From Mobula hypostoma (taxonomy: Eukaryota): a stretch of 64,000 nt of DNA. The DNA is taken from the NCBI RefSeq assembly GCF_963921235.1, contig NC_086097.1, positions 50,780,001-50,844,000 of the forward strand, read 5' to 3'. Each line of letters begins with the position of its first letter. The stretch's first letter is position 1. The position numbers and the translations under genes are program-made. Positions 4,844-57,062 of this stretch are shown in pieces. The notes under the pieces were generated by a model. It did no database searches and had not been told where the DNA came from. It saw nothing but the letters and a program-made list of their open reading frames with translations.

Positions 4844-6855
4844 CTGAACAAGATTACAGTGATTAGTACAGAGAGCAAACAGATAAAATTAAAAACGAAT
4901 TGTTGTTACAAAATTATACAAAATAATACAAATGTAATAACATTGAAGTTGTTCTTTGTATCAATGCATGAAAACAAACAGGACACTAATTCTGTGACAA
5001 GATATACCTTCAAGTCAAAAGTTAACACTACAGAGCAAGAGAGATCAGCATCAAAGAACAAAAAAAATTAACTTGCTCTTTTCCCACTATAAACTGTGTC
5101 ATTTAGGTTTTCTTTCTTGCCTTCTACAAACCTGCACTTGATGTAAGAAACTGCCAAGTCACTGCAGATTCGTCCAGCTTTTTGTCCTTGACAGCTCACC
5201 ACTTAACCCAGTTTAAAAGATCAAGACTGAAATGCTTCTGCTCTTTCGCCACCCACTGACTTTCTTCCATGAGACTCCTCAGCTATATTTTTATATACTG
5301 CTATGACCATTAAAGTTAGGGATTCTCTTCATATATGCATACAAAGTCCAATATCAGATCTTCATTCATTCTTGGTTTAACAGCTTTTATTATAAGCTGC
5401 TGCTGTTCCAACTCAACACTGGCAAGAGCACAACAGTCTTTGACAACACCTGCCACAGACCCTACACCTCTACTGCCGAAAGCCAGGGCAGAGGACACGT
5501 GAAAGCACCGCCATTGTATTATATGATGTGAAATTTGTTATTTTGCACCAGCAATACTAAACAAAGACATAATACTACCATAAATTACAAAACCAATAGT
5601 GCAAGGAAAAGGAATAATATGCTGGTTTTCACAGATTCAAGGACCATTCATCAATCTGATGGCAGTGGGGAAGAATCAGCTCATCATGTCACACACCATT
5701 TGATTTGGAGACAACCCACCTTCCTTGATCACTGCAGAGTCTAATTCTGGGAATTCTCTTTGCAGCAGCACTGCAAAGAGAACCTTTGGCAGAAAGATTG
5801 CAGTGGAAGCTCACCACTACCTTCATAAGTGCAATGATTGCTGGTCTGGCCAGTTACAATTCATGCCCCAAAAAATGAACACATTTTTAAAAATTAATTT
5901 CAATAGGTACTTTATGTAATACCCTGGTTTAAGACCATGCTTTATTTTATTAATACAGTTATGCTTTTGGGTTTTTTTGCAGATTTTCTCAAAACTCAAT
6001 AAGTGTTCTTTTAATTACATTATATAATTGAGTATTTCATTTCGCTTAAAATAAAAATTCAGTTGATTCATAAGTTAGGTTTGTTGTAATTAGCCAAAAG
6101 GATTTATGGCCAGTCAGATGCCCAGGAAGAGAACAAGTAACCACTTTGGAGAGAGTTTAGGATGGAAGAAGGAGAATGTTGGAGGAAAGAAATGGACAAC
6201 AAATGTAGTGCAGGAACATGGTAAAACACACAAATTTGGAAGGATAGAAAAAGATGTCAGAAAATCCTGGTGCAGATTTTGGTTTCATTGAGAAAGTACA
6301 GATAACTTTTAGTTAGCTAATTAGTACATGATCCCGGAGAAAGTTCAACACCTTTTCCTTTGACATTGAGCGGATATTTATTCATGTTTCACTCAGACTG
6401 TTTTTCAGCGCAGAACTGTTTATCGTGAGTAAATGAAGTGAAGTGGACTAGACTGATTATGCAACAATGAGCTCCAATGACTATGTGCATGTAATAGACT
6501 AATATATACTGTAGGTAATGGGCCCTTTTTCTTTACTTTGTTTGGTATAGTTTAAAATATGTTCAATAAAGTTCAATAAAAATCCAATCTAAGTTTGTAC
6601 TGTTGAGAGTTAACTTGTTGCTTCTTGGCGAACAGTAAAGTTGCATGGGTGTGCCAGTATTCATAAAAATACAGTCTCACTTTCCCTTACAGGAACATTC
6701 AAACTTTTACGTTTTGTGTGTACCTGAATCATCTTTACCCTAGACCTGTTTATTGATTGGAAATGGCCTCCTCATTGTTATTCCCCATGCATTGTCCTAT
6801 GTTGCTCTCAGCTTGTATTTACAGTAATAGTTAACTCATTACAAGCCTACAGTTA

Positions 6856-7830
6856 GGGTACGTCCACACTACGCCGGATAATTTTGAAAACGAAGCTTTT
6901 TCTCTTCGTTTTGCCCTTCCGTCCACACTGAGCCGGCGTTTTCAGCCCCCGAAAACGGAGATTTTCGAAAACACTCTCTAGAGTGAATAGATCTGAAAAC
7001 GCTTAATATCCGGCGTAGTGTGTACGGGGTAACCGGAGAGATTTTAAAACGCTATCATGACAACACCACAACAATGCTTTTTTTCTGCTTCTGCTTGGTA
7101 CTGCGCAAGCTGTTATAACGCGCAGTCGGTGTGAACGGCGTGAGAGTTAAATTGTGTGAGTTTTTTTGACTATTTAAAAACGCTGTCATGACGTGCTGGA
7201 ACAGATGTTCGTTATTTTCTTGAACGCCACTACCAAACAATTTCAGAACAGACGGACGAGACTGAAGCCAGTTGACCCATAGCTTACTGAATAAATAAGT
7301 ATACTCACTTCGCCCTGTTTTCTGTTCTTGCTTGTATGAAGGTGGTTTACCTATTTATGCAAGTACTTCTCTGACAATAGATGTGTAACAGCCTAATGTA
7401 ACATTGTATGGAAATACAAGATAACACTGATGCAGACGTTTTATATATTTAACAAGGTGCTTTATTAATGTAACAGAGTTAGTTTTTCAATGTTCGTCGT
7501 CAGCTGGGTCATACTGTCCGTGAACTCCCTGTCGGTTGCCTCCATACGCTCCAGTATTTGTTTTTTTTTAAGTTTTAAGTCCTCCTGTGCAAGAGCCAAG
7601 AGCAATTCCTTTAAAGTTTTTCTACTCTGTAACTGGACAAACACGCATGAAGTATATCTTTCCCTCTTCGCTTGTTTTCTGTGTCCTGCGCATGCCCAGT
7701 AGGAGGAGATTCGCCCAAATATCCCCCTAATGTAGACGGAGATATTTTGAAAAACGCTTAGTGTGGACGCCTGTCGTTTTTACTCGAAACCGGCGTTTTC
7801 AAAATTATCTGGCGTAGTGAGGACGTAGCC
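6856..7830. mobile_element. Non-autonomous PIF/Harbinger DNA transposon
   Basis: 37-bp TIRs at 6856-6892 and 7794-7830 (34/37 match) starting GG(G/C)TACGTCC. 3-bp flanks TTA/TGA. Subterminal GAAAACG/GTCCACACT repeats. Confidence 0.85.
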
Positions 7831-7899
7831 TGAGAAAGCTACATTTACGGCAGCAAAAAAAGCCTAAAGCAAGCTACAATTAAAGAATACATTATTCAT

Positions 7900-8550
7900 G
7901 CTAGGCCCTCTGTTGGTTGGGGTTGACCATAGATGTGGCATCCTAGCTGTCTACAGGATATGCTAGCCAAGGCAGTATGATATGGGGAACAAGCTGTTGA
8001 CCATGTAACCGGCTTCCCCTCTCCATACATCTGATGAATCCAAAGGAACAGTAGAGTTGCCAGTCGGCATTGAACTCAATTAGGACTTCCCGAGGAACTA
8101 CAGCTCTGGATTTTTCCTCAGGGTTTACTCCCGTAACCTTCCCCATGAGGAGCTTTGAGATCAGTTTCCCTTCTCCTAGATGAGCTACCAACCACGGATG
8201 ATGGGTCCCAGCTGCCTGAAGCCACTGGTTTTAAGGCACCAGTAACCCACCGTTGACCCTTTTGTCAGGAGGAACAGTTCCACTGGGTTTAGCAGCTAAG
8301 CCACATGTGAGGGCCAAAGTCTGGGTTTCTCCCCACGTTCCAAAGACATACTAGTTGGTAGGTTAATTGGTCATTGTAAATAGTCCAGTGATTTGGCTCA
8401 GATTAAAACTGAGGGTTGCTGGGCGGCGTGGTTCAAAGGGTCGGAAGGGTCTATTTTGCGCTGTATCTCAATAAATAAATTTGAGACGCACACCACTGGG
8501 AGCATTTATTAGGTAGTAGGAGCTTATCCCCACTACCACCCCCACCTATA
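7900..8550 (-). mobile_element. Probable RTE-derived non-autonomous element interrupted by a V-SINE fragment
   Basis: Sequence resembles RTE 5' regions (TTCCCTTCTCCTAGATGAGCTACCAACCACGG), from recall only. V-SINE 3' part at ~8320-8480. Confidence 0.4.
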
Positions 8551-8602: not shown

Positions 8603-11370
8603 TTTTTAAATTTCAAAATATACTTTATTCAAAAATAAATATATACAATAAACCATTCAATAACTTTTCATCCTTTACATACGTTTCCATTATAGTCAGT
8701 ACATATCCGTATTTATAGCCACCCACGTGGCACTCCAGTAGTTCAGCTTACCATATCATTGTTGAGGGGTATACTCCCTGCCCCCCTGACCCCTCCCACT
8801 CCCACGGGTGGAGAAACCTATACTGTGGTCCTTCCCCACCGGGCCCTTGCGGTGGCTGCACCAAGTTTCAGTGCGTCCCTCAGCACGTACTCCTGCAGTC
8901 GAGAATGTGCCAGTCGGCAGCATTCTCCCACGGACATCTCCATGTGCTGGTAGATCATCAAGTTTCAGGCCGACCAAAGAGCGTCTTTCACCGAGTTGAT
9001 GATCTGCCAGCAGCACCGGATGTTGGTCTCTGTGTGCATCCCCGGGAACAGCCCGTAGATCAGAGAGTCCTCTGTTACGCAGCTGCTGGGGATGAAACGT
9101 GACACTAGCCCGTCCATCCTCCTCCACACCCTCTTTGCGAACTGGCAGTGTGCAAAGAGGTGGGTCACAGACTCCTCCTCACTGCAGTCCTCCCGTGGGC
9201 AGCAGGGTGTGGAGACGACGTTCCAGGCGTACAGGAGGGCTCTGACTGGGAGGGCCCCTCTCACCGCCAGCCAGGCGAGGTCTTGGTGCCTGTTGGTGAG
9301 ATCTGGCGATGAGGCATTTTGCCAAATGAACTGGACAGTCTGCTTCATTCAGGGAACCACCCCACTGTGTCCATCACGTCCTTCTCCTGCAGTGCCTGCA
9401 GGATATTACGAGCCGACCACTGCCTGATGGCCCTGTGGTCAAAGGCGTTCTCCTGGAAGAACTTTGCTACGTAGGACAGGTATGCCGGCAACGACCAGCT
9501 GACTGGGGCGTTGCGCTGGAGTGGGGCCAGACCCACCCTTCATAGCCAGGGCGACAGGTAGAACCTGGGCACGTAGTGGTACTTGGTGCCCACATACCTG
9601 GGTTCTACACACAACCTGATGCAGCCACATACGAAGCTGGCCTTCAGGGTGAGGGCGACATTGGGGACGTTCTTGCCCCCGTTGTCCAGGGCCTTGTGCA
9701 TGACGGTCCGTCTCACCTGCTCCATCTTGGATCCCCAGACGAATCTAAAGACAGCCTGGGTGATTTCCGAGCTGTAGGAGCGGGGGACAGGCCAGACCTG
9801 CACCAAGTACAGCAGCCCTGAGAGCACCTCACACCTGATGACCAGGTTCTTGCCCGTTATCGACAGGGAGCGCCCTCCCCACAGTCCCAGTTTCTGTTTC
9901 ACCTTGGCAGTCCGCTCCTGCCAGTTCTTGTTGCACGCCTCAGCCCCTCCGAACCAGATCCCCAACACCTTCACGTGGTCAGACCTGATGGTGAAGGGGA
10001 CGCTGGATCGGTTGGGCCAGTTGCCGAACAGCATGGCTTCGCTCTTCATGCGGTTGACCCTGGCCCCCGACGCTAGCTCGAACTGTTCGCAGGTGCCAGT
10101 CAACCTGCGAACTGACCTCGGATCAGAGCAGAAGACGGTGACGTCGTCCATGTACAGGGAGGTTTTCACTTGGGTCCCTCCACTGCCTGGCAGCGTCACC
10201 CCTCTTATGCCCTCATCCCTCCTGATGGCTTCCGCAAAGGGTTCTATGCAGCAGACAAACAAGACAGGGGAGAGGGGACAGTCCTGCCTGACTCCAGACC
10301 TGATGGGGAAGCTGTCTGTTTCCCACCCGTTGACCTGGACTGCACTACGGATGTCTGTGTAGAGCAGTCTAATCCAATTCCGGATTCCCTCCCCAAATCC
10401 CATTTTGGAGAGCACGTCCGCCATGTACGTGTGCGATATCCTGTCGAAGGCTTTCTCCTGGTCCAAGCTGACCAGGCAGGTGTCCACCCCCGTCCTGCAC
10501 GTAGGCGATGGTGTCCCTCAGCAGCGCGAGGCTGTCTGAGATCTTCCTGCCCAGTACAGCCCAGGTTTGGTCTGGGTGAATCACCTGTCCTAGAGCAGAC
10601 TTGACCCTGTTGGCGATAGCCTTGGACAGGATCTTGTAATCCACATTCAGGAGAGAGATGGGTCTCCAATTTCTAATGTCCTCCCTTTCCCCCTTCTGCT
10701 TGTAGATGAGGGTGATGATACCCTTCCTCATGGACTCAGACATACTGCCGGCCAGAAGCATAGCGTTGTACACTTCCAGCAGGTCTGGGCCCATCCAGTT
10801 CCACAGAGCCAAGTACAACTCAGCCGGTAAGCCGTCGCTTCCGGGAGTCTTACCCGACCCAAAGGAACGGATGGAGCCTGTCAGCTCGTCCAGGGTCAGT
10901 GGCTGATCCAGACTCTCCCGCTTGCCGTCGTCTAAGACCTGCGTGATAGACGACAGGAAGTTGCGGGAGGCTGTGGATTCTGTGGCCTTTTCGTCGTACG
11001 GACCGGCATAGAAGGACTTGCAGATCCTCAGTACGTCGGTTTGTGAGGACGCGACTGAGCCGTCCTCTTCCTTAAGGTTGTGGATCACAGAACTCCCCCG
11101 TGCACCTTTTGGAAGAAGAAGCGTGAGCATGTCTCGTCCTGCTCCATGGTTTGGACCCTTGATCGGAAGATGATCTTGGAGGATTTGGCGGCGAGGTGCT
11201 GGGCTTGCCGGCCCTTCACCTCTTGCAATTCCTCCCTGACATCCAGCCCCTTCGACTGCAGAAGGAGGAGTTGCTGCAACTCTGTCTGGAGTTTACGCAG
11301 TTCCCTCTGCTCCTGCCTTGCTTTCTGGATACCCTTGCGGATGAAGAACCTTTTAATGTTCTGCTTGGTG
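8603..11370 (-). mobile_element. Tx1-clade (L1 group) non-LTR retrotransposon, 5'-truncated ORF2 with frameshifts
   Basis: Successive ORFs contain GKTPGSDGLPAELY, NWRPISLLNVDYKILSK, LDQEKAFDR, GVRQDCPLSP, YMDDVT and a C-terminal CCHC (CPREDCSEEESVTHLFAHC). AATAAA plus A-tail near 8603-8630. TSD GTTTTTAAA(C/T)AATT at 8589-8602 and 11371-11384. Confidence 0.92.
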
Positions 11371-11657
11371 GTTTTTAAATAATTGGCAATGTAATCATAT
11401 GGGTATGTCTTTGCTGGCTCACCCACCTGACCTAATTGCATTGAACAAGGCTCATCGCCACAGGCCTTTAAGTTATCTGAAGTAAACACTCCAACATTGT
11501 TTCTTGTTTTCACATGAAAACTTCAGAACTATGCCACTGTCATTTTATCCTCCAAAATTCCTATAGTGAGTATACGGGTCTTTTCCTGAATCTGACTTCT
11601 AAAATCTCTCATGCAAAAATAATTAGCAATGTAATCACATGGGTAGGTCTTTTTCTG

Positions 11658-12098
11658 GTGGTCAACATTGAATTCTATAACTTCTGGTAATTTCTTCACC
11701 CCCCCTTCCCCTTCTCTGTTTATCCATTCCCCATTCTGGTTACACTCTCACCTGTCCATGACCTCCCTCTGGTGTCCCATCTCCTTTCTTTTCATCCAAG
11801 GTCACTGTCCTCTCCTGTCAGATTCCTTTTTCAGCCCTTGATCTCTTCTACCTGTCACCTCCTGGCTTCTTAATTCAACAGCCCTTCCCCACCAACCAAC
11901 CAGCTTCCCCCTCACCTGGTTTCACCTATCACCTGCCAGCTTGTACTTCTTCCCCTGCCCCCATCTTCTTATTCTGGCTTCTGTTCCCTTCCTTTCCAAT
12001 CTCAGTGAAGGGTCTTGGCCCAACACGCTAACTGTTCATTACCCTTCGTAGATGCCGCCTGACTTGCTGAGTTCCTCCAGTATTTTGTTCATGTTGCC
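11658..12098 (+). mobile_element. Penelope-like element 3' fragment (degenerate)
   Basis: Pyrimidine-rich body followed by GAAGGGTCTTGGCCC...TGCTGAGTTCCTCCAG. Same family as 41111-42321. Other fragments at ~19820-20090 and 20821-20950. Confidence 0.7.
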
Positions 12099-19495: not shown

Positions 19496-20952
19496 GTATT
19501 GTATTAGATTGTTTTCAATAATTGTTCTAAATGCTTAAGAACAGATTGTTGAAATATTGAATAAAAGAGTATTATTAACATCATTTTTATTATATGCAAA
19601 AAAAAACAAAGATCAACTACTCAGTTTGGCACATAACTTTTCTCCATTATAAATTGTTTCATCATATTTATATTGCATAGTATGTGTAAACCAGTCAGGC
19701 TATAATTAAGTCGACCCTGGGAGACAGTGTTAGACTAATTTAGGATAGTGCATATTAGCCCAATTAATAACTTGTTCACTAATCCTGTAGGGGAAGAGAA
19801 GGTTCACGATGTAACAGCCAGGATCTCCTGGTGACCACCAATTTCAATTCCACGTCTCATTCCCACACCGACATGACCCTCTGCCACTATGAGGCGAGGC
19901 GCAGATTGAAGGAGTAACAATTCATATTATGTTTTAGTAGTCTCCAACCTGATGGCATGAACAACTTCAATTTTCCCACTTCTGGTAACTGCTCCCTCTG
20001 TTTTCCTTGTTCTCCCCGCCCCGCCCCGCCCCGCCCTTGTTTTCCTTCACTCTGGTGGCCCTCTTACCCCTTCTCTTCCCCTCCTCTGCCCACATTTTTT
20101 ATACTGTAAAACTGGTCCACCTAATTAAGTTTTGCATTTTGCAAGTATACTGAGTGAACCTGAAATCTTTCAATATCTTTATAATATCAACGATTAGTAA
20201 AAAAAAATTAAATCACTTTTTTTTAAAAAGTGGCATTCATAAGCTACCAAATAATAGGCAGTATTGAACAAATTATTTTAATTTTTTATGGTTTATGGCA
20301 CCATATGAGGACATGAGTTACTTTGCAATATTTATTTAAACTTTCACTTGCTGGATTGAAGGTTATCACATTTATTTGTTTGCAAATGCATTTGTTTCAC
20401 CTGATATCTAGTTGATCACATTATGTTTGCCTTTTTCTGTTTTGGGTAAACTCAGGCCCTGCTGTGTTTCATATATTCCCATACCTGTTCCCCATATTCT
20501 GGTCTAAATTTGAATTTGTGCCCAGCTATTTCAGTTGTGTTGTTTGAATGCCATAGAGTGCAAGTTAGTTGCTAATTATTGTCAAAGGTTAAAAATCAGC
20601 AATGACAATGTTTTATTCCTGGTGGAGTACTTCACTGAGCAAAGTGATTATTCACTTCCTACCTCCTAGCGGTTCACCCCGTCAAATAAATTCTTCCTCA
20701 TTTACTAGCCTATGATAAACCTCAGCCTTTTGTTTTTCTCCCCAAATGATATCTGGATGAACCTGTGTTCTGAATTGGCCTCAACTGCTTTCCAGTTCAT
20801 CTGTGAAATCCAGCTAGTACCTGACGAAGGGTCTCGGCCCGAATCGTCGACTGTACCTCTTCCTAGAGATGCTGCCTGGCCTGCTGCGTTCACCAGCAAA
20901 TTTGACGTGTGTTGCTGGAATTTCCAGCATCTGCAGAACTCCTCGTGTTTAC

Positions 20953-21187
20953 TTTATTCATCTGTGTAGCCCAGCTAGTACTCTAATCATCTGTGTAGCC
21001 CAGCTAGTACTCTATTCATCTGCGTAGCCCAGCTAGTACTCTATTCATCTGCGTAGCCCAGCTAGTACTCTATTCAACTGCGTAGCCCAGCTAGTACTCT
21101 ATTCATCTGTGAAGCCCAGCGAGTACTCTATTCATCTGTGAAGCCCAGCTAGTACTCTATTCATCTGTGAAGTCTAGCTAGTACTCT
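20953..21187. repeat. 29-bp minisatellite, 8 copies
   Basis: Unit TCTATTCATCTG(T/C)G(T/A)AGCCCAGCTAGTAC repeated head-to-tail without spacers. A degenerate unit lies at ~20796-20820. Confidence 0.97.
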
Positions 21188-21667
21188 GTTGACTGTGTTG
21201 AGGCTGACCATTTGCTTTCTGCTTTTCGCCATTTTTTTCTGTTTTTCTGAGCTTTTTACTGATGTGATGTGACAGGCTAATGAAAAAGAGGGCACTGGTA
21301 CCCTAAGAAAGGAATAGTTTAAGAGTCCACAAAACGAGGGAGAACAATAGTGTGAACAAAGCAGGAGAATAAATGAGTAATCTGAGAGGTAAACAAGCAG
21401 GACAAGAAAGGCAAACATGGAAAAAATGCATAGAATGAGTGTTTAATGTTATTTGGCTGGAAATGGGAGAACTTGTTTGCAAAATAATTGGCCTTTAAAT
21501 TGTTCCTGCTAATACTTACGGATTTTTCTTTAATAATTTCCAAAAAAGCATTGTTTTTATTTCAATTATTTACTTCTCACTTTGCTCAAGAGACAGTGAT
21601 TATTACTTAGATCTATTAGCTTCGTAAACATTTATTTACTGATCTAAAAAAAATCATTATTTTTAGC

Positions 21668-23329: not shown

Positions 23330-24120
23330 CCACTCTTTGCTTTCCACGGAGATCTCTCCCTTTGTGACTCACTGGTCCATTCGTCCCTCCAATTACTCCC
23401 TCCTGGCACCTATCACAAGTGACAGAAATGCTACACCTTCCCATTCACCTCCTCCCTTACCTCCATTCAGGACTCCAAACAATCCTCACAGTTAAGAGCA
23501 CATTTCACCTGCAAATCTTTTGGGGTTGTCTATTATATTAGGTACTCCCAATGCAGCCTCCGTGAGACTTGACGTAAATTGAGGACTGCTTTGCCAACAC
23601 CTCCACTTCATCCTCCAAAATTGTTATTTCCTGGTGGCCAACAATTTTAATTCCTATTGCTGTTCCCGTTCCAGTATGTTGGTCCACTGCCACGATGAGC
23701 CCACTCAGGGTGGAGGGGAATTGGTAGCCTCCAACCTGATGGCATAAATGTCATTTTCTCCTTCTGGTAATTTTTTTTTCTTTTTTTCCCCTCTTCCTTC
23801 CCTTCTGTTCTTCACTCTGGTCTCTTACCTCTTTTCCTCACCTGCCTATCATCTCCCCATGATGTTCCTTCTTCTTCCCTTTTTCCATGGTCTACTATCC
23901 ACTCCTATTAGATTCCTTCTTCTCCAGCCCATACCTTTTTCACCCACCTGGCTTCACCTATCACTTTCTATCTAGTCCTGCTTCTACCCCTGCTCCACCT
24001 TTTTATTCTGTCATCTTCCCCCTTTCTTTCCAATCTGAAGAAGAGACTCTGCTCAAAATGTTGATTTCCATAGATGGTGCCCAACCTGATAAGTTCCTCC
24101 GGCATTTTGTGTGTGTTGCA
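23330..24120 (+). mobile_element. Penelope-like element fragment (degenerate)
   Basis: Same family in the opposite orientation (GGTAGCCTCCAACCTGATGGCAT, TTCACCTGCAAATC). Confidence 0.8.
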
Positions 24121-34270: not shown

Positions 34271-34921
34271 ACACATAAAAGTTGCTGGTGAACGCAGCAG
34301 GCCAGGCAGTATCTCTAGGAAGAGGTACAGTCAGTGTTTCGGGCCAAGACCCTTCGTCAGGACTAACTGAAAGAAGAGCTAGTAAGAGATTTGAAAGTGG
34401 GAGGGGGGAGGGGGAGATCCAAAATGATAGAAGACAGGAGGGGGAGGGATGGAGCCAAGAGCTGGAAAGTTGATTGGCAAAAGGGATATGAGAGGATCAT
34501 GGGACAGGAGGCCTAGGGAGAAAGAAAAGGGTGGGGTGGGGGAGCCAAGAGGATGGGCAAGAGGTATAGTGAGAGGGACAGAGAAAGAAAAAGAATGTAT
34601 GTATATCCTCTGGGCTTTCCCCCCTCCCCCTTTTCTTTCTCCCTAGGCCTCCTGTCCCATGATCCTCTCATATCCCTTTTGCCAATCACCTGTCCAGCTC
34701 TTGGCTCCATCCCTCCCCCTCCTGTCTTCTATCATTTCGGATCTCCCCCTCCCACTTTCAAATCTCCTACTAGCTCTTCCTTCAGTTAGTCCTGACAAAG
34801 GGTCTTGGCCCAAAACATTGACTGTACCTTTTCCTAGAGATGCTGCCTGGCCTGCTGCATTCTCCAGCAACTTTTATGTGTGTTGCTTGAAATTCCAGCA
34901 TCTGCAGATTTCCTCGTGTTT
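34271..34921. mobile_element. Penelope-derived fold-back insertion (inverted pair)
   Basis: Arms ~34271-34555 and ~34603-34881 are reverse complements. Perfect 13-bp TSD CCATAACAATTAT (34258-34270 / 34922-34934). Confidence 0.9.
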
Positions 34922-38701: not shown

Positions 38702-39830
38702 CAAGGTTCACACGGTAGGCTTATTCAGAAAGTCAGAAGGCATGGGATCGAGGGAAGTTTGGCCAGGTAGATTCAGAATTGGCTTGCCTGCAGAAGGCAG
38801 AGGGTTGTGGTGGAGGGAGTAGATTCAGATTAGAGGGTTGTGACTAGTGGTGTCTCACAAGGATCTGTTCTGGGACCTCTACTTTTCGTGATTTTTATTA
38901 ACGACCTGGATGTGGGGGTAGAAGGGTGGGTTGGCAAGTTTGCAGATGACACAAAGGTTGGTGGTGTTGTAGATAGTGTAGAGGATTATCAAAGATTGCC
39001 GAGAGACATTGATAGGATGCAGAAGTGGGCTGAGAAGTGGCAGATGGAGTTCAACCCGGAGAAGTGTGAGGTGGTACACTTTGGAAGGACAAACTCCAAG
39101 GCAGAGTACAAAGTAAATGGCAGGACACTTGGTAGCATGGAGGAGCAGAGGGATCTGGGGGGTACATCTCCACAGGTCACTGAAAGTTGCCTGACAGGTA
39201 GATAGGGTAGTTAAGAAAGCTTATGGGGTGTTAGCCTTCATAAGTCAAGGGATAGAGTATAAGAGTCGCGAGGTAATGATGCAGCTCTATAAAACTCTGG
39301 TTGGGCCACACTTGGAGTACTGTGTCCAGCTCAGGTCACCTCACTATAGGAAGGATGTGGAAGCATTGGAAAGGGTACAGAGGAGATTTACCAGGATGCT
39401 GCCTGGTTTACGGAGTATGGATTATAATCAGAGTTTAAGGGAGCTAGGTCTTTACTCTTTGGAGAGAAGGAGGGTGAGAGGAGACATGATAGAGGTATAC
39501 AAGATATTAAGAGGAATAGATAGAGTGGGCAGCCAGCGCCTCTTCCCCAGGGCACCACTGCTCAATATAAGAGGACATGGGTTTAAGGTAAGGGGTGGGA
39601 AGTTCAAGAGGGATATTAGAGGAAGGTTTTTCACTCAGAGAGTGGTTGGTGCGTGGAATGCACTGCCTGAGTCAGTGGTGGAGGCAGATACACTAGTGAA
39701 ATTTAAGAGACTACTAGACAGGTATATGGAGGAATTTAAGGTGGGGGGTTATATGAGAGGCAGGGTTTAAGGGTCGGCACAACATTGTGGGCCGAAGGGC
39801 CCTGTACTGTGCTGTACTATTCCATGTTCT
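38702..39830 (+). mobile_element. Relatively young CR1 3' fragment nested in a V-SINE
   Basis: ORFs 38840-39205 and 39228-39770 (GVSQGSVLGPLLF, KFADDTK, FFTQRVVGAWN). 6-bp flanking repeat AAGTCA (38696-38701 / 39831-39836). The SINE resumes after 39831. Confidence 0.9.
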
Positions 39831-40530
39831 AAGTCAGGGCACTTGGAGGATACCTAGATGGTCACAATGAGAATGTGCAAACTCGACACAGACAACACCT
39901 GAAATCGGGATTGATTGTGGATCATTGGAACTGTTAGTCTATTGCTCTCTAAAAATAAACTGCAACATTTTAATATAACTCTCTCCTCAAATCCTTTCCA
40001 TGGAGAAGCTAACGTTAAAAAATCCCAAAATGTAACCATATTATAGAAACAAATTACACAGATTGGAAATAATTAGTAAATTTTGCTTCTGAATCAGCTT
40101 TAAAACCACTAGCAGACCCCTGCCAAATTGTTTCTAAGAAATGGGGCCTGTTATTAAATCACATATTGGCTAGAAGCACGTCAAGTTTCCTCAATTTCTA
40201 AATTCCTTTCTCCCTTCCTTTCCCCATGATTTTGTCTCTCTTCCAAACCTTGCTATGGTTTTATATCTCTACCAATTTTATTCCTTCTTTGATTCTGAAC
40301 AGCCTGTCCTATACAATACCCTCAGCTTCACCTCAATTAATTCAAAGCTTGGCAATGACGATGAAATCATTCTCTACCACCTTGCCTCGAGGCCCATTTC
40401 CAAGGCCAGGAGTATTCATCCCAGGCTGTGGACCTTTCCTTCTGTCTTTAGAATTCCTAATTGACCTATTGATAGTTCTTTATTTTTAAATCTGTAAATC
40501 TTATTAGTTAAGATCCTCAATGTAAAATCC

Positions 40531-40683
40531 CAGTTGTCTTGTTCTAGCTGCATCATCATCAGTAATCAATCTAACCCACAGAGGACAGCTACTGCTCCAG
40601 CACAGTATCCAGGTTGCAGTTCTGAGGAAGGTCTGTGGGTTAGACAGATGACTGATGATGATGCAGCTAGAACAAGACAACTG
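40531..40683. repeat. Near-perfect inverted repeat (52-bp arms, 49-nt spacer)
   Basis: 40531-40582 matches the reverse complement of 40632-40683 at 49/52 positions; the outer 33 bp are perfect. Confidence 0.97.
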
Positions 40684-40901
40684 AGTAAACCTGTCCTTTG
40701 CACAAATACTAAAGTTATATTCAGATATCATTACTTGAAGATGTTGGTAGAATATTGCTATGCATAAAATGGCTACCAGATTGGCCTATATAAGGTACAT
40801 CACTTAAAAGCAATTGAGTGAATAGTTGATTAGAATCTGAATGACAGTGTGTTGCCTACAAGCAGGATTTAATTGGTTCTGATTCCAACAATTTCACTTA
40901 C

Positions 40902-41051
40902 TACTGGTATATTTCTGTTTGGTTGTCTCACGCGTCTTTTGAGAGGTTTTTGTTTGATCATTTCCTTTTCCTTTCTAGGGTTGTTGAAGTAAGGGAGATC
41001 CAGCAACTGCTCACAGTTTAGACGATCGTCAGGGTCCATTTGCAAACAGCC
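40902..41051 (-). CDS. CDKL1: CDKL1 penultimate coding exon (kinase subdomain XI)
   Basis: Acceptor ttttaacacag, donor gtaagt, 150 nt. Reads GCLQMDPDDRLNCEQLLDLPYFNNPRKEKEMIKQKPLKRRVRQPNRNIPV. Confidence 0.93.
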
Positions 41052-41110
41052 CTGTGTTAAAAGTAATACTGTTTCAAATCTTCTTTGTAAACAGATAATT
41101 TTATAGACAC

Positions 41111-42321
41111 AAACAACAGGAATTCTGCAGATGCTGGAAATTCAAGCAACATACATCAAAGTTGCTGGTGAACGCAGCAGGCCAAGCAGCATCTATAGGA
41201 AGAGGCGCAGTCGACGTTTCAGGCCGAGACCCTTCGTCAGGACTAACTGAAGGAAGAGTGAGTAAGGGATTTGAAAGCTGGAGGGGGAGGGGGAGATCCA
41301 AAATGATAGGAGAAGACGGGAGGGGGAGGGATAGAGCCGAGAGCTGGACAGGTGATAGGCAAAAGGGGATACGAGAGGATCATGGGACAGGAGGTCCGGG
41401 AAGAAAGACGGGGGGGGGGGACCCAGAGGATGGGCAAGAGGTATATTCAGAGGGACAGAGGGAGAAAAAGGAGAGTGAGAGAAAGAATGTGTGCATAAAA
41501 ATGAGTAACAGATGGGGTACGAGGGGGAGGTGGGGCCTAGCGGAAGTTAGAGAAGTCAATGTTCATGCCATCAGGTTGGAGGCTACCCAGACGGAATATA
41601 AGGTGTTGTTCCTCCAACCTGAGTGTGGCTTCATCTTTACAGTAGAGGAGGCCGTGGATAGACATGTCAGAATGGGAATGGGATGTGGAATTAAAATGTG
41701 TGGCCACTGGGAGATCCTGCTTTCTCTGGCGGACAGAGCGTAGATGTTCAGCAAAGCGGTCTCCCAGCCTGCGTCGGGTCTCACCAATATATAAAAGGCC
41801 ACATCGGGAGCACCGGACGCAGTATATCACCCCAGTCGACTCACAGGTGAAGTGATGCCTCACCTGGAAGGACTGTTTGGGGCCCTGAATGGTGGTAAGG
41901 GAGGAAGTGTAAGGGCATGTGTAGCACTTGTTCCGCTTACACGGATAAGTGCCAGGAGGGAGATCAGTGGGGAGGGATGGGGGGGACGAATGGACAAGGG
42001 AGTTGTGTAGGGAGCGATCCCTGCGGAATGCAGAGAGGGGGGGGGGAGGGAAAGATGTGCTTAGTGGTGGGATCCCGTTGGAGGTGGCGGAAGTTACGGA
42101 GAATAATATGTTGGACCCGGAGGCTGGTGGGGTGGTAGGTGAGGACCAGGGGAACCCTATTCCTAGTGGGGTGGTGGGAGGATGGAGTGAGAGCAGATGT
42201 ACGTGAAATGGGGGAGATGCGTTTAAGAGCAGAGTTGATAGTGGAGGAAGGGAAGCCCCTTTCTTTAAAAAAATTTTAAAAGAATTTTAAATAAAATTTA
42301 AATTTTAAATAAAATTTTAAA
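41111..42321 (-). mobile_element. Penelope-like retroelement (Neptune-type), 5'-truncated, with GIY-YIG endonuclease
   Basis: ORF 41537-41863 reads VIYCVRCSRCGLLYIGETRRRLGDRFAEH...QPDGMN. Upstream Cys linker PCKRNKCYTC. Perfect 14-bp TSD AATTTTATAGACAC (41097-41110 / 42322-42335). Confidence 0.93.
41209..41244 (-). ncRNA. Minimal type I hammerhead ribozyme motif in the Penelope-like element
   Basis: Minus strand reads AGUC-CUGACGA-AGG(gucucgg)CCU-GAAA-CGUC-GACU: conserved core, stem I AGUC/GACU, stem II, loopless palindromic stem III (ACGU) and a GUC cleavage triplet. Confidence 0.7.
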
Positions 42322-44419
42322 AATTTTATAGACACTTTTATTTTTCCCTCCTCTAATGTTTGCCTTCCTTTATTTACCATCTCGTTTCCATCAGGAAGGA
42401 ATGGCCTCTCCCTTTAGACACCTCCATTGCATGTAGTTTTAACTGATACAGAGACAAAGGATAAAAACTCCTTACCCAGTGCCATAAGACTGATAAACTT
42501 ACTGATGAGATCAGGTTGAAAATACATGGTATACTTAAGGCAGGTGTTCAGAACTTAATAAATAAAAGTAAGAAACCAACAATTTAAAATTTAACAGTGG
42601 CAACAATGTTGTTTTCAGCCAATGGGAGACTGGAATTACCTGGGCTAAAATATGGCCTTTATTAGGTCAGTTTTGAACATTGTGCTATCTCCCCCTCACC
42701 CCCACCACCACCACTACCACCACTCCTGTTATATCTGGAGGAAAATATGTATATTTAACATTCCAAAAATATGTACATCTGTCAGTTAGATCCAATTAGG
42801 AAATAAAGAAATTTGGTCCACGAAGTATTAGCATATTGAAGGATTTCTTTATAGCCATAAATATTTAATGAAATTACTCCCAAAATTGGTATCTGAAATG
42901 TCTTGTTAGTTTGTACATGTTTTTGTAATACTAAAAAGATGACTCATCTTAAACATAAATTTTAGTAGTCAATCACATGCCCTCACTGCTGAAGTGACCT
43001 TTAATAATTGTCCAGTGAAAGGGGATTTTACATCCATTCTGTATACCCTTTACTAATAAATCTACAAACTAAATGATAATAGCGTGCCTCCTTAACACAC
43101 TATGTGTAAAAAGTTTATCCCAAACTCTACTGGATTTATTGTAGTATGTTACATTTATAGTCTACAGTTGTGAATTTCTTGTCTTATTTTTTGCCCTCCA
43201 AACTTTCATCAGATAATTCCTCATCTCTTTTCTACAAAAAAGAGTCCCAGGTTAATTAGTCTTTCCTAATAAAGTTTATCTTCTCAGTTCTCATATCATA
43301 CAAATGAATCTTTTTTGTACTTTCTCCAACATTTAAAAAGAATATATGCAGAGCAGAAATGTGCTCAGCTTTCCGGATGTGGCATAATCAAGTTTCAGCA
43401 TGTTTACATAATTTCAAAGTTCAAAGTAAATTTATTATCAAAGCACGTATATGTCACCATATCCTACATTAATATTCATTTTCTTGCAGGCATTCACAGA
43501 GGAACAAAGAAATACAATAGCTTCAATGAAAAACTACATACAAAGTGACTTTTCAGTACTGTCTCTCTATGAATAAAAAAAAGGACATTTTTTTTAAACA
43601 GGTCCTATAAACTGCCATCACTTTACACAAATAACTCATTGTTCCTGAATCACATTCAGATTCCCATTATTCTTAATACTTAATATAAAGAATTGTGTAC
43701 AGGTTTGTCTTCTGTATCTAACCACTTTATAATAAAATCAGAGACACCTTTTTTTAGGGTATATACTGAGACAAAGTAATTTTTCAATTTTCTGACATTT
43801 AATTGACATTATTCAAGTTTATCTTGTGTCTCTTTTAGCAACACTATCTCTATTCTGTCTTTAATTTAAAGCTCTGTAGAATAGTTTTCTACTTACTTTG
43901 TACTTTCTAATGGGTCTTATTGATTTCTGTATTATTTTCTAATAATTTCTGGTTCTTTTTTGTTGTTAACTGCTTTATCATCCACTGTATACCTTTTTCT
44001 ACAGTTCATTTGTTCCTTATCTCTTTATGTTCCAGTGTTTTATTTTCTTTCTCTGATCGCTGCTTAAATATTTTGCACTTTTCTCCTTATCAAAAATTTG
44101 CCATTCCTAATTCCTTTTACATCCACTTAATTTGAACTTTGACCCTATTATTTTGGTCTTGCTTTACTTCAATCTTTCTGAATCTTTACTTTAATCCAGC
44201 TGGCTGCGAGTGAGTAGACTTGGCTCAATGAAGGAGGAGTGTTGGTTGGCGCACTGGCTGTGAATGGTGTGGGGATGTCGGGAAATAGTGTAGGTTCAGG
44301 TAGGGGGAGGATCTGAAAAAGGAACCGGGAATGGAGGGTTGGGGTGAGTGCAGGTTGGCAGGAGGAGGTTGGAATGAAGTTGAGTCTAGATCTGGAAAAC
44401 AGAAAGAGAAACAATATGA

Positions 44420-46940
44420 CTGTTACCAAAATAGAGAAGGTTGAGTTATTGACATGATCATTTGCTGCAGTTCATGATCAAGATAATGTAAGTGAAGAGG
44501 CTAAACAATGCAGGGACAAGGCTCTAAGTGAACAGTCCGATGTGTTGGAAGCCAGCTGCAGCAATGATAGTATTAGTGATGTAGAGTTTTCTTTGTGTGA
44601 ATTTAAGAAAGCTAATAATATTACAGGTCAGACGGATATAGGAAAGGATGATCTATGTTATTGTATGTTTAAACATATGGCTGACAACTCTCTTCAGGTA
44701 ATATTAAAACTTTAGAATCATATTTAGAGTTTAGGCCATCTTCTCTCCTCATGGAAAGTGGCAGTTGCAGTAGCAGTGCCTATTCTAAGACCTGGGAAAT
44801 CCCCGTTGGATCCTTCTAGTTATAGACCAATATCAATAACGTCCCATTTGTGTAAACTTATGGAACCTATGGTAATAGAGTAGTTGAATTATATTTTGGG
44901 AAAAAAAGAGGTGATATAGCATTTTATCAGAGCAGAATTTAGGAAGGGTAGAATGACAATAGAATCAGTTTTATGTTTGAAAATGACATGAGGAAAGCAC
45001 AGGCAAATAAAGAAGTTGTAATAGCAGTATTTTTTGATATTGAAAAAGGATATAATATGTTATGCAAGGAAGATCATTGGATTAAATTTTGGAAATTTGG
45101 AGTGAGAGGAAGGCTATATAATTTTTCTGAGTTTTTTTTACTTGGACAGTCTATACAGATAAGATGGTGCTTCATGGATCAGAGGTAGAAATTTCAATTT
45201 AACTGTATATAGGATGCAATTAGTGATTAATAGGGTTGAACAGTGAGCAAATAGATGGAGTTTTAAGATTTCAATAGACCTGTGCTTGATAGAAGTGTCA
45301 GTGGTAAAATTTCTTGGCATGTGGCTAGATAATAAGCTGACATGGAAGCACCATATCATTCAAATAATTGATATATGTAAATGAGCATTAAGTATCTTTG
45401 GGTGTCTATGTGTGAATCCTTGGGGTGCTACACGAAAATCTCTGTTGACCATTTATATTTATTTAGTTAGGTCGGTACTTGATTATGGCTCTGGGGCTTA
45501 TGGATCAGCTTCATCTTCAAAATTAAAATGTTTGGATGTGATACAAGGACAGGCTTTAAGGCTGTGTTGTGGTGCAGTAAGGCTGTCTCCTGTTTCAGCT
45601 TTACTGGTTGAAAAAGGACAATTACCCTTACAATTGCGGAGGTTGAAGTTCATGTTAACATACTAGATTAATTTGGGGGGGGGTCACCCTGTTTAAAGTG
45701 TGTTGGAAGACTGTTGGGAACATCACATGAAGAGTGTTTTTAGTTTTGGGTGGCTGGGCTCTTATCACATTAGGAACATGGGTTTGCTGGATTATGCAGT
45801 GTGTCCCACTGTAGCTTTTTCAGTAAACTCACTGTGGTTTTTACCAATAACTTTAGATGATTTTAGGTTGCATCATTTAATGAAGTCCAAGGATCTTGAT
45901 ACGCCTGGGAGTCTGTCGGTTCATCAACATGTTAAGGGAAATTATTGTAATATGTTAACCATTTTTATTGATGGATCAAAAGATAATTTAACTGGGAATG
46001 TTGGTGTGGCTGTTTTAGTGCCTGAATTACAGGTAACAATAAAGAAGCATCCAACTAACCATTTATCAGTATTTACAGCAAAATTGGTTGCCATCATTTT
46101 GGGCTTACAGTGGGTGGAGGAAATTTGTCCTTGCAAAGTTGTATTTTGTTCAGATTCTTTTTCGGATTTGACTAGTCTTAAAGCAGGTCATTCTAGCAGT
46201 AGGTCAGATTTACTGCTGGAAGCTTTTCAAAAGTTATTTCATATTCAAAGGATTGGTTTATATGTCTTCCTCTTACAGGTCCCTGCACATAAAGGTTGTT
46301 GTGGGGAATGAGTGGGTTGATTGTTTGGCCAAAAAAAAGCCGTTAAAAGTTTATCTGTGGATATAGACCTTCACCTTAGCAAATCAGAAGCTAAGGGGTT
46401 GATGGGGCTAAGAATTTGGGGATTACGGCAAGACCTGTGGGATAATGGGCATTAGGGAAGACACCTTTACAGAATACATAAAACTTCTGGATTGATGGGA
46501 GAAGGGGGTAAAATAATAAGGGAAGGAATTATATTGACTCGACTTAGAATTGGACACACTATGCCTTATATCTTGTTGGAACACACTCGGGGTGTATAGG
46601 TTTTGTCATCATTATGAAACAGTTCAACACATTCTTTTACAATGTAAAGCATACAAGTTGTAATAAAGCAAATGCAGGCTGCACTTCTATCTCCAGGGAT
46701 TGATAGCTTTCTTTTAAAAACCTTACTAATTTATGGAAGTGACTTTAATTTAATTCACAATATTATCTTTCATTATTTACAATCTATAGGGCTTTTTGGG
46801 GTAATTTAGTTTTCATTTGATAAAGAACTAGTAGGGGTTTTATTTCCCAACATTCTACACCACTCTCCAATCCAGTTGGTGGCAGTAATGCACCATTAAG
46901 TTGGACTGCCAACCGCCATTAAAAGCCAGAGGAAGAAGAT
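44420..46940 (+). mobile_element. I-group (Nimb-like) LINE with RT and RNase H remnants
   Basis: AVFFDIEKGY (RT), LVRSVLDYGS, IFIDGSK...VVFCSDS...VPAHKG (RNase H). 3' end GTTGGTGGCAGTAATGCACC...GAAGAAGA. Many stops; the RT core appears internally deleted near 45170-45190. Confidence 0.82.
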
Positions 46941-47171
46941 TAGTTTAATTTAATGTTATTAAAACTGCTATAACAGAACAGACTAGTTTCAGCTGAACAC
47001 CATCTACACCTAAAGTCATAAAGTCATAAACCTGTCTTACGAGATTCAGCAGTTAAATACCTGTTCAAGAAAAATACTAAAAATATAGCTTTTTCAATGA
47101 TTTACTGTAGTCATATTCTATCATTCTTTGTATGACAACACTGATGTATTTACATGCCAAAGAGTATTCAC

Positions 47172-54480: not shown

Positions 54481-55640
54481 ATAAACACAAATTTTGCAGA
54501 TGCTGGAAATCCAGAGAAACACATACATAATGCTGGAGGTCAGGCAGCATCTATGGGAAAAAAATAAACATTCGACGTTTCGGGCCAAGACCCTTCACTT
54601 CAATTGGAAAGGAGGGGGGAAGAAGCCAGAATAAGAAGGTAGGGGGAGGGGAAGAAGTTCAGGCTAGAAAGTGATCAGTGAAGCCAGGTGGGTGGGTAAA
54701 GCAAGAAGTATGAAGTTAGAGAAATCAATGAATATGAGGTGCAGCTCCTCATTCCTGAGAGTAGCTTCACCATGGCGGTAGAGGAGGGCAGTGACTGACA
54801 TGCCGGAATAGGAATGGGATAGAAATTAAAATGGTAGACCACCAGGAAATCATGCTTTTTGCAGATGGAGCAAATGTGTTTGACAAAGCGGTCCCTAATC
54901 TACATTGGGTCTTACTAATGTTGCAAAGCAATTCCCAAACAGTCCTTCCAGTTAATGCAAGAATCCACTTCCAAATTTCTTGGGATCATTTACTGTATCT
55001 GGTGCTCCCGATGTGCATAGACGAGATGCAATGTAGATTGGGTTCATGTTGTCAGGCAGCATCTGCAAAAAGCAGGACTTCCTGGTGGCCAAACATTGTA
55101 ATTCCAACCCTAATTTCCATTCTGACATGTCAGTCCATGGCTTCCTCTATCACCATGACAAGGCTACTCTCAGATTGCAGGAGCAACACATATTCCATCT
55201 GGGTGGTCTCCAACCTGATGGAATGAACATTGATTTCTCCAACTTCTGGTAATATTTTCTCTTCCCCTATCTCTCTTCTTCTATTCTCCATTCTGGCTCA
55301 TCTCTTATCCCTTCTCTTTTCCTCACCTGCCTATTGCCTCTCCCTGGTTTCCCTCCTCCTTCCCTTTCTCCCATGGTCCACTCTCTCCTATGAGATTTCT
55401 TCTTTTCCAGTCCTTTACCTTTTCCACCTATCACCACCAGGCTTCTTACTTCACCCCCCTATCCCCCACCCACCCGGCTTCACCAATCACCTTCTAGCTT
55501 GTCCCTCTTTCCCTCCCCTGACCTTCTTATCCTGGCTTTCCAGTCCAGGTGAAAGTCCTCAGCCTGAAACACTGACTGTTTATTCATTTCAGTGGCTACT
55601 GCCTGACTTGCTCGTTCCTCCCGCATCTTGTATGTGTTGC
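54481..55640. mobile_element. Penelope-derived inverted pair (older)
   Basis: Minus copy ~54484-54905 joined to plus copy ~54920-55640 (ORF 55046-55252 ends QPDGMNIDFSNF). Flanks TCTTACTTT(TA/CC)AACT match at 13/15. Confidence 0.8.

Positions 55641-56750: not shown

Positions 56751-57062
<312 letters not shown>

Follow-up and report, generated by a model that had tools for sequence, protein, structure and literature searches.

A minimal hammerhead motif of a young Penelope-like element in an intron of CDKL1 in Mobula hypostoma, probably carried there as an inert passenger

Penelope-like elements (PLEs) of metazoans carry minimal hammerhead ribozyme motifs that were described in 2014 (Cervera and De la Pena 2014, PMC4209133). 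In the parts of that paper drawn on here, these motifs are of type I, lie in the pseudo-LTR and have a helix I of 4-5 bp, an extra base between positions 9 and 10.1 and a loopless stem III that is palindromic at positions 15.1-16.1; they are mostly solo copies from truncated elements, fish included. The same parts give a double hammerhead geometry in which strands are swapped, so that the core of one unit cuts the GUC of the other, and report that solo minimal hammerheads were uncleaved and dimers were cleaved weakly. For the anole element Poseidon PAc (Anolis carolinensis; Frangieh et al. 2024), the cited sections of PMC11167929 report a hammerhead that cleaved only with the element's protein, no RNA-seq ends at its site, and an element that uses unprocessed RNA in vitro. 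According to a passage of PMC8557442, PLE hammerheads may merely parasitize the elements. Motifs of self-cleaving type lying in sense orientation in a host intron, as the one described below does, include the CPEB3 HDV-like ribozyme (PMC10274809) and amniote intronic hammerheads (PMC6765202), as presented in the portions of those papers used here.

A literature search, mostly of subscription-free papers, found none on PLE hammerheads in sharks or rays. The motif analysed here lies in a 64,000-nt stretch of the Mobula hypostoma genome (the window) and is of the known kind, the PLE minimal hammerhead of 2014, with which it shares the features listed above; what is new is that the typical G10.1-C11.1 pair has been lost in the dominant subfamily to which it belongs.

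The hammerhead motif and the element that carries it

The minimal type I hammerhead motif occupies 41209..41244 on the minus strand, which reads AGUC CUGACGA AGGGUCUCGGCCU GAAA CGUC GACU from 41244 to 41209. Its stem I arms (41244-41241 and 41212-41209) form a helix I, AGUC/GACU, of 4 bp with a possible fifth U-G pair, which closes the type I topology; between them lie the core CUGACGA (41240-41234), the stem II region (41233-41221), GAAA (41220-41217), a palindromic ACGU (41217-41214) and, by hammerhead numbering, C17 (41213). The conserved core positions C3-A9, G12-A14, A15.1, U16.1 and H17 are all present, and the predicted cut, 41213/41212, falls 161 nt 5' of the start of a CDKL1 exon at 41051. 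Because stem III is the ACGU palindrome at 15.1-16.1 and has no loop, it is unable to close in a monomer; in a dimer of two such copies every pair of the symmetric double hammerhead is canonical. A preliminary description, made from the letters of the window, had given the same minus-strand motif with all core nucleotides, the same cut position, a distance of about 160 nt to the acceptor and the same class, a PLE hammerhead with a stem III formable only as a dimer, and on each of these points our analysis agrees.

One correction concerns stem II, the unpaired core being intact. In the window motif a U at 11.1 replaces the G10.1-C11.1 pair, which is highly conserved in the PLE motifs covered by the cited parts of PMC4209133, and helix II is short; depending on the register, position 10.1-11.1 is a G-U pair with a bulge or an A-U pair without one. 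Together with the extra base after A9, G10.1-C11.1 counts in that source as a typical feature and lies outside the paper's descriptor. A literature search found no kinetic data for A-U or G-U at 10.1-11.1.

A covariance-model search of the window with Rfam, a check that the preliminary description had proposed, returned no hammerhead family among 22 matches with E up to 10; the Rfam hammerhead models likely expect a stem III hairpin. The top Rfam matches were rejected as hairpin artefacts from an inverted PLE pair at 34.3-34.9 kb. Nor was the 36-mer motif more stable than its shuffles (z -0.37). A structure descriptor gave 23 real matches, nearly all from one family, against 0 in a shuffled control. 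With this control and the reversed-pattern controls, which gave 0 genome-wide, the motif is not a chance fold.

The motif is carried by a young 5'-truncated PLE (41111..42321, minus strand), a 1,211-bp insert with the 3' part of the ORF, a pseudo-LTR with the hammerhead and a tail of ~100 nt. Its 3' end lies 59 nt before the CDKL1 exon at 41051, and it is bounded by an AT-rich target-site duplication (41097..41110 at the 3' end, 42322..42335 at the 5' end) of 14 bp, which bears out an earlier reading of the element's limits. By translation and Pfam, the ORF end (41537..42019, minus strand) encodes a CX4CxxC linker and an intact GIY-YIG endonuclease domain (E 1.4e-4; its 22.5 bits lie just under the cut-off of 22.6). 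The last 160 ORF residues were 100% identical in 150/150 scored genomic matches, the window copy included, these matches being a subset of 203,314 genomic candidates.

Two full-length loci, L031 and L032, contain a motif, an open frame of 1,043 codons and a second motif ~3.5 kb on, so that in full copies the motif has its pseudo-LTR location and is repeated at both ends. The frame encodes RT, the CX4CxxC linker and GIY-YIG (Pfam RVT_1 E 3.4e-5 and 2.2e-4, GIY-YIG E 1e-3, both below curated cut-offs), the arrangement of one ORF with RT and C-terminal GIY-YIG by which endonuclease-positive PLEs are recognized. A linker of the form CX2-5CxxC between RT and endonuclease belongs to the Neptune/Nematis definition in the cited part of PMC8557442; judged by the linker alone, the family would fit these clades. 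The window copy is ~98.5% identical to the full-length elements and, among 24 protein-selected loci, matches 22 at 98.0-98.8% identity, the other two standing at 96.6 and 97.2%. Since it extends ~100 nt beyond the cut site, the RNA from which it was reverse-transcribed had likely either escaped cutting there or been re-joined.

Several structures at the edges of these elements were seen in passing. AT-only, self-complementary short repeats of target-site-like character occupy the 5' junction of the window element (42263-42325), possibly through local template switching during insertion. At another locus (L142, 1762, plus strand) the end of the endonuclease region is fused directly to the hammerhead core via a 3-base microhomology, and a full-length PLE (L031) is adjoined by an open frame of at least 396 codons of 10-residue tandem repeats (6813-8000, plus strand).

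Abundance, subfamilies and age

The exact 31-nt core in its CCU form was found in 43,114 copies in 3.48 Gb, and its CCC form in 7,580, with 0 matches for the reversed control in both cases. The former number gives an expectation of 0.93 copies per 64 kb, so the one copy in the window is what chance would provide. Among 20 loci chosen by protein identity alone, a motif scan found a motif in 16 and none in 4, and the identical 36-mer was present in 15 of the 20; an intact motif is the default state for this PLE subfamily. The CCT at 41223-41221 was considered as CpG decay of the window copy and this was excluded by the predominance of CCT over CCC copies.

At position 11.1, U was found in 14/14 copies with a tail at least 88% identical to that of the window copy, in 7/20 at 75-88% tail identity and in 43/81 below 75%. 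The dominant young subfamily has fixed U at 11.1 (41221 in the window) and lost G10.1-C11.1, and a formerly bulged A could pair instead. The ribozyme of the dominant subfamily is predicted to be weakened.

The age of the insertion was approached through contigs from three organisms, aligned to 39800-42250. That of organism A continues out of unique flank across the junction and covers 21 nt of the element at the depth seen in the flank. Alignments of the contigs from organism B (~0.8% diverged, with 10 other letters over about 1,300) and organism C (~3.8% diverged, with 48) both end at 41110; the letters beyond this point, which number 1,115 for B and at least 24 for C as read from record coordinates, are unlike the element. 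The PLE insertion is apparently absent at the CDKL1 site in B and C, as judged from one low-depth contig per relative covering one side, the 3' junction; on the same single contigs, the site does not show the conservation at an orthologous position that marks domesticated ribozymes. The insertion is therefore likely recent and species-specific, and the motif would be intact because the copy is young, not because it has been selected.

The window also holds relatives of the motif. All six sister motifs that had been reported as mutated (near 12000, 20821, 34335, 34790, 54575 and 55545) are present and mutated, and there is a seventh at 24035. Two of them belong to related PLE ends placed head-to-head in the last CDKL1 intron (34271..34921), where the sense motif (34360-34330) retains its core and has lost its cut site and the antisense motif lies at 34792-34822; these ends make up a near-perfect fold-back of ~300 bp. 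A further sense sister (54571..54601, minus strand) lies in an upstream CDKL1 intron and has a broken catalytic core. Elsewhere, at 20796-21190, a 130-bp PLE stub starts at the hammerhead core, and behind it come about eight tandem units of 29 bp that resemble the 25 bp directly before the stub. Several long frames at 8719-11522 (minus strand) belong to a broken non-LTR retrotransposon with RT, which we take to be Tx1-like.

The motif in the CDKL1 intron

The host gene is encoded by the minus strand, so the motif is sense to it, as had been claimed. Among the 60 structure matches listed for its exon at 57010, the best solved-structure match was CDKL1 (E 1.8e-37, versus 1.7e-24 for CDKL2); CDKL4 was absent among these matches. 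Minus-strand kinase exons were placed at ~60337-60265, 58692-58602, 57010-56810, 52935-52853, 47228-47172 and 41051-40902, followed by one from 33455 to the stop, and one more exon of the gene lies outside the window. The PLE sits in an intron of 6,120 nt (41052..47171, minus strand), directly before the penultimate coding exon of 150 nt (40902..41051, minus strand). A 970-nt contig of a putative RNA run aligns to 41031-40902 and departs exactly at the donor, so a spliced transcript that includes this exon likely exists. In putative RNA run X11 no contig covered 41080, a position between element and exon at which an extended exon or a stable 3' cleavage product would be expected, contigs dropping rare forms; summed contig depth was higher 3' than 5' of the cut site, a depth that is unable to rank the parts, and contigs as such are unable to show RNA ends. 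PLE-like contigs were abundant in the one putative RNA run aligned.

Our reading is that a very active, hugely amplified young PLE brought its usual pseudo-LTR minimal hammerhead into the CDKL1 intron, where the motif is likely a recent passenger and probably inert. In the element's own tandem transcript both motifs would pair into a double hammerhead, probably aided by the element's protein. The solo intronic copy would have no competent partner in cis, would be masked by a predicted hairpin and would be removed with the spliced intron. Two partners in cis were considered and rejected: the sister at 34360 has two mismatches in stem III and no cut site, and that at 54601 combines a mismatch in stem I with a broken core.

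A partner in trans is what the preliminary description had invoked. When the element is active, PLE RNA, with protein, would pair with the CDKL1 pre-mRNA, and the partner's core would cut at 41213/41212 often enough to lower CDKL1 output, a course of events that we regard as very unlikely, although low-level cutting may occur. There are tens of thousands of identical PLE copies and, given the abundant PLE-like RNA contigs, partners in trans may exist; all pairs between two copies are canonical, cleavage in the presence of its protein is documented for a PLE hammerhead of a vertebrate (reported in the cited part of PMC11167929), and a cut so close to the acceptor might leave a short 5' end degradable before splicing. 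As the strands are swapped, a cut site with its stem arms would be all that the CDKL1 RNA has to supply, the deciding core being the partner's; the intact core of the window copy, on this analysis of the geometry, is not the deciding feature in a dimer. Yet such a partner would be held by just 4 + 4 + 4 bp. The active dimer is predicted at -8.9 or -6.7 kcal/mol against -28.3 for the best duplex (-11.9 against -32.1 for CCC copies), some 20 kcal/mol above it, in folding energies that exclude tertiary contacts and protein help. In its context stems I and II have a predicted pairing probability near 0, pairing is predicted between the hammerhead core and the pyrimidine tract upstream of it, and the motif in the CDKL1 intron has to do without G10.1-C11.1. 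Cleavage of hammerhead dimers has reportedly been studied by Lunse et al.

Splicing tolerates slow intronic cleavage, introns cut by a slower hammerhead being still spliced and a fast HDV cut not being survived (as reported in the cited section of PMC2995048). The CPEB3 ribozyme has 9,931 nt to the next exon and a half-life of 2-3 min (from the part of PMC10274809 used here), whereas at the CDKL1 site the polymerase would arrive at the exon within seconds. The published cleavage tests, set beside this locus by analogy, agree in direction with the motif being inert.

To see whether sense copies are purged, we counted all motifs in 160 10-kb stretches of known gene orientation (L038-L197). This is a non-random sample: 100 stretches come from within 14 ion-channel genes with several exons each, and the other 60 have a kinase exon at their centre. 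There were 10 exact copies in sense and 4 in antisense; by a rule of intact core, cut site and both stems there were 13 sense and 8 antisense, with an intact sense copy in 12/160 stretches. There is no sign that intact sense motifs have been purged from genes. Tandem retrozymes, unlike the solo PLE copies here, are excluded from Xenopus introns (according to the cited part of bioRxiv 10.64898/2026.07.22.740005). In both orientations together, 14 exact copies were observed against 23.3 expected from the genome-wide rate (P 0.027), and insertions into genes may be under some negative selection, though not a sense-specific one. A site of this kind would by extrapolation occur in thousands of introns without sense depletion, so any effect would not be specific to CDKL1.

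The orientation of the elements themselves was uneven in this sample. Hammerhead-bearing PLE ends were in sense excess in introns, unlike LINE controls and independent of motif intactness: all motifs with up to 8 mismatches numbered 108 sense versus 72 antisense (p 0.009; reversed control 0), and insertion events were 70 sense-only, 39 antisense-only and 29 both (p 0.004). Fragments of three control LINEs, which we take to be CR1, L2-like and Tx1-like, gave sense/antisense counts of 120/131, 40/61 and 2/3, and the PLE endonuclease part 21/21. The excess is a post-hoc observation from a non-random sample, and a search of mostly subscription-free literature found nothing on PLE sense bias in introns.

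Closeness of a PLE hammerhead to an acceptor is likewise not rare, as a sense motif with up to 2 mismatches was found within 330 nt upstream of 2/60 kinase exons. These near-intact motifs (L105 4596 and L139 4763) lie 325 and 211 nt upstream of a kinase-domain match, and at L139 an antisense near-intact copy lies another 555 nt upstream. The proposal that the window copy is a special one, a TE-dependent switch on CDKL1, is thus unsupported by its abundance, by the intact motif of most protein-selected loci, by the apparently empty site in two relatives and by the undepleted sense copies; the accompanying caveat that the motif may be inert has gained support.

The insertion might act on CDKL1 without any catalysis, through splicing signals. 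A PLE-borne pyrimidine tract with CAG (41247..41270, minus strand; CAG 41249-41247) is predicted to be acceptor-like and lies 195 nt upstream of the host acceptor, with which it would compete. Use of this site would either extend the exon, with a stop after 17 codons, or join a donor-like GTATGT in the element tail (41149..41154, minus strand; site at 41154) to define a putative 92-nt pseudo-exon; decay would be likely in both cases. The host acceptor is weak, with pyrimidines at 10/17 of positions -20 to -4 against 15/17 for the PLE CAG, and has an AG at -19; the exon extension is in frame and contains stops, and use of either PLE site would introduce stops or a frameshift. In 77/114 related motifs the core is preceded, 3-4 nt away, by an AG, with a median upstream pyrimidine share of 0.8, and the 5' end of helix I marks the 3' limit of an intron in Drosophila virilis Penelope (in the cited part of PMC4209133). 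Judged from the sequence, this acceptor-like site is a likelier route to an effect on CDKL1 than catalysis, and still an improbable one. Folding predictions place the site in the paired part of a hairpin, and sense copies are not depleted from introns. A search for spliced retrocopies in which either of two donor candidates is joined to the PLE acceptor found none (0 matches, and 1 match that retains GT), and 143 motif copies in fetched loci included no spliced retrocopy, the one same-strand jump being a microhomology deletion. For full elements, a short intron behind the motif was also considered and then dropped, as L032 is without a good acceptor there. A search of mostly subscription-free papers found none on PLE hammerheads affecting host splicing.

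Least probable of all, and very unlikely, is an effect through a long RNA duplex across the 150-nt exon, in which 41111-41289 would pair with the antisense copy at 34743-34921, burying the motif and perhaps favouring skipping or back-splicing. The arms are 179 nt long and 86% complementary, with a predicted -285.8 kcal/mol. The antisense arm has, however, a nearer partner 50-340 nt off that is 91-93% complementary and is made first, and which should therefore win; and the RNA contig described above includes the exon.

Comparison with known systems

In copy number, the family of the probable passenger in the CDKL1 intron is far ahead: 43,114 exact copies compare with totals of ~4,000 for coelacanth and ~9,000 for Xenopus, as counted with the PMC4209133 descriptor in the part of that paper used here, whose supplementary motif families may include this subfamily. 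Set against the Neptune/Nematis endonuclease-positive PLEs in the cited section of Craig et al. 2021 (PMC8557442), the window copy has a 14-bp duplication and an AT-rich site that is not a microsatellite. From what the cited sections of PMC11167929 report on PAc, the two elements share a hammerhead at the pseudo-LTR/ORF junction, an AT-rich target and copies that end ~100 nt beyond the hammerhead. Unlike the window PLE, PAc is by clade definition without the Zn-finger linker and is therefore of another clade; its open frame starts inside the motif, whereas that of the window family starts downstream of it, and it is for PAc only that protein-assisted cleavage has been demonstrated. Domesticated ribozymes are conserved across species and that of CPEB3 cleaves alone, in the accounts cited above, whereas the window motif is multi-copy, apparently species-specific and dependent on a partner. 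As a finding about CDKL1 it carries little weight, being another solo intronic PLE hammerhead, and the family is more useful than the locus: the ~50,000 exact copies in this genome, its two forms of stem II and its full-length elements, which are intact, make the role of PLE hammerheads testable here.
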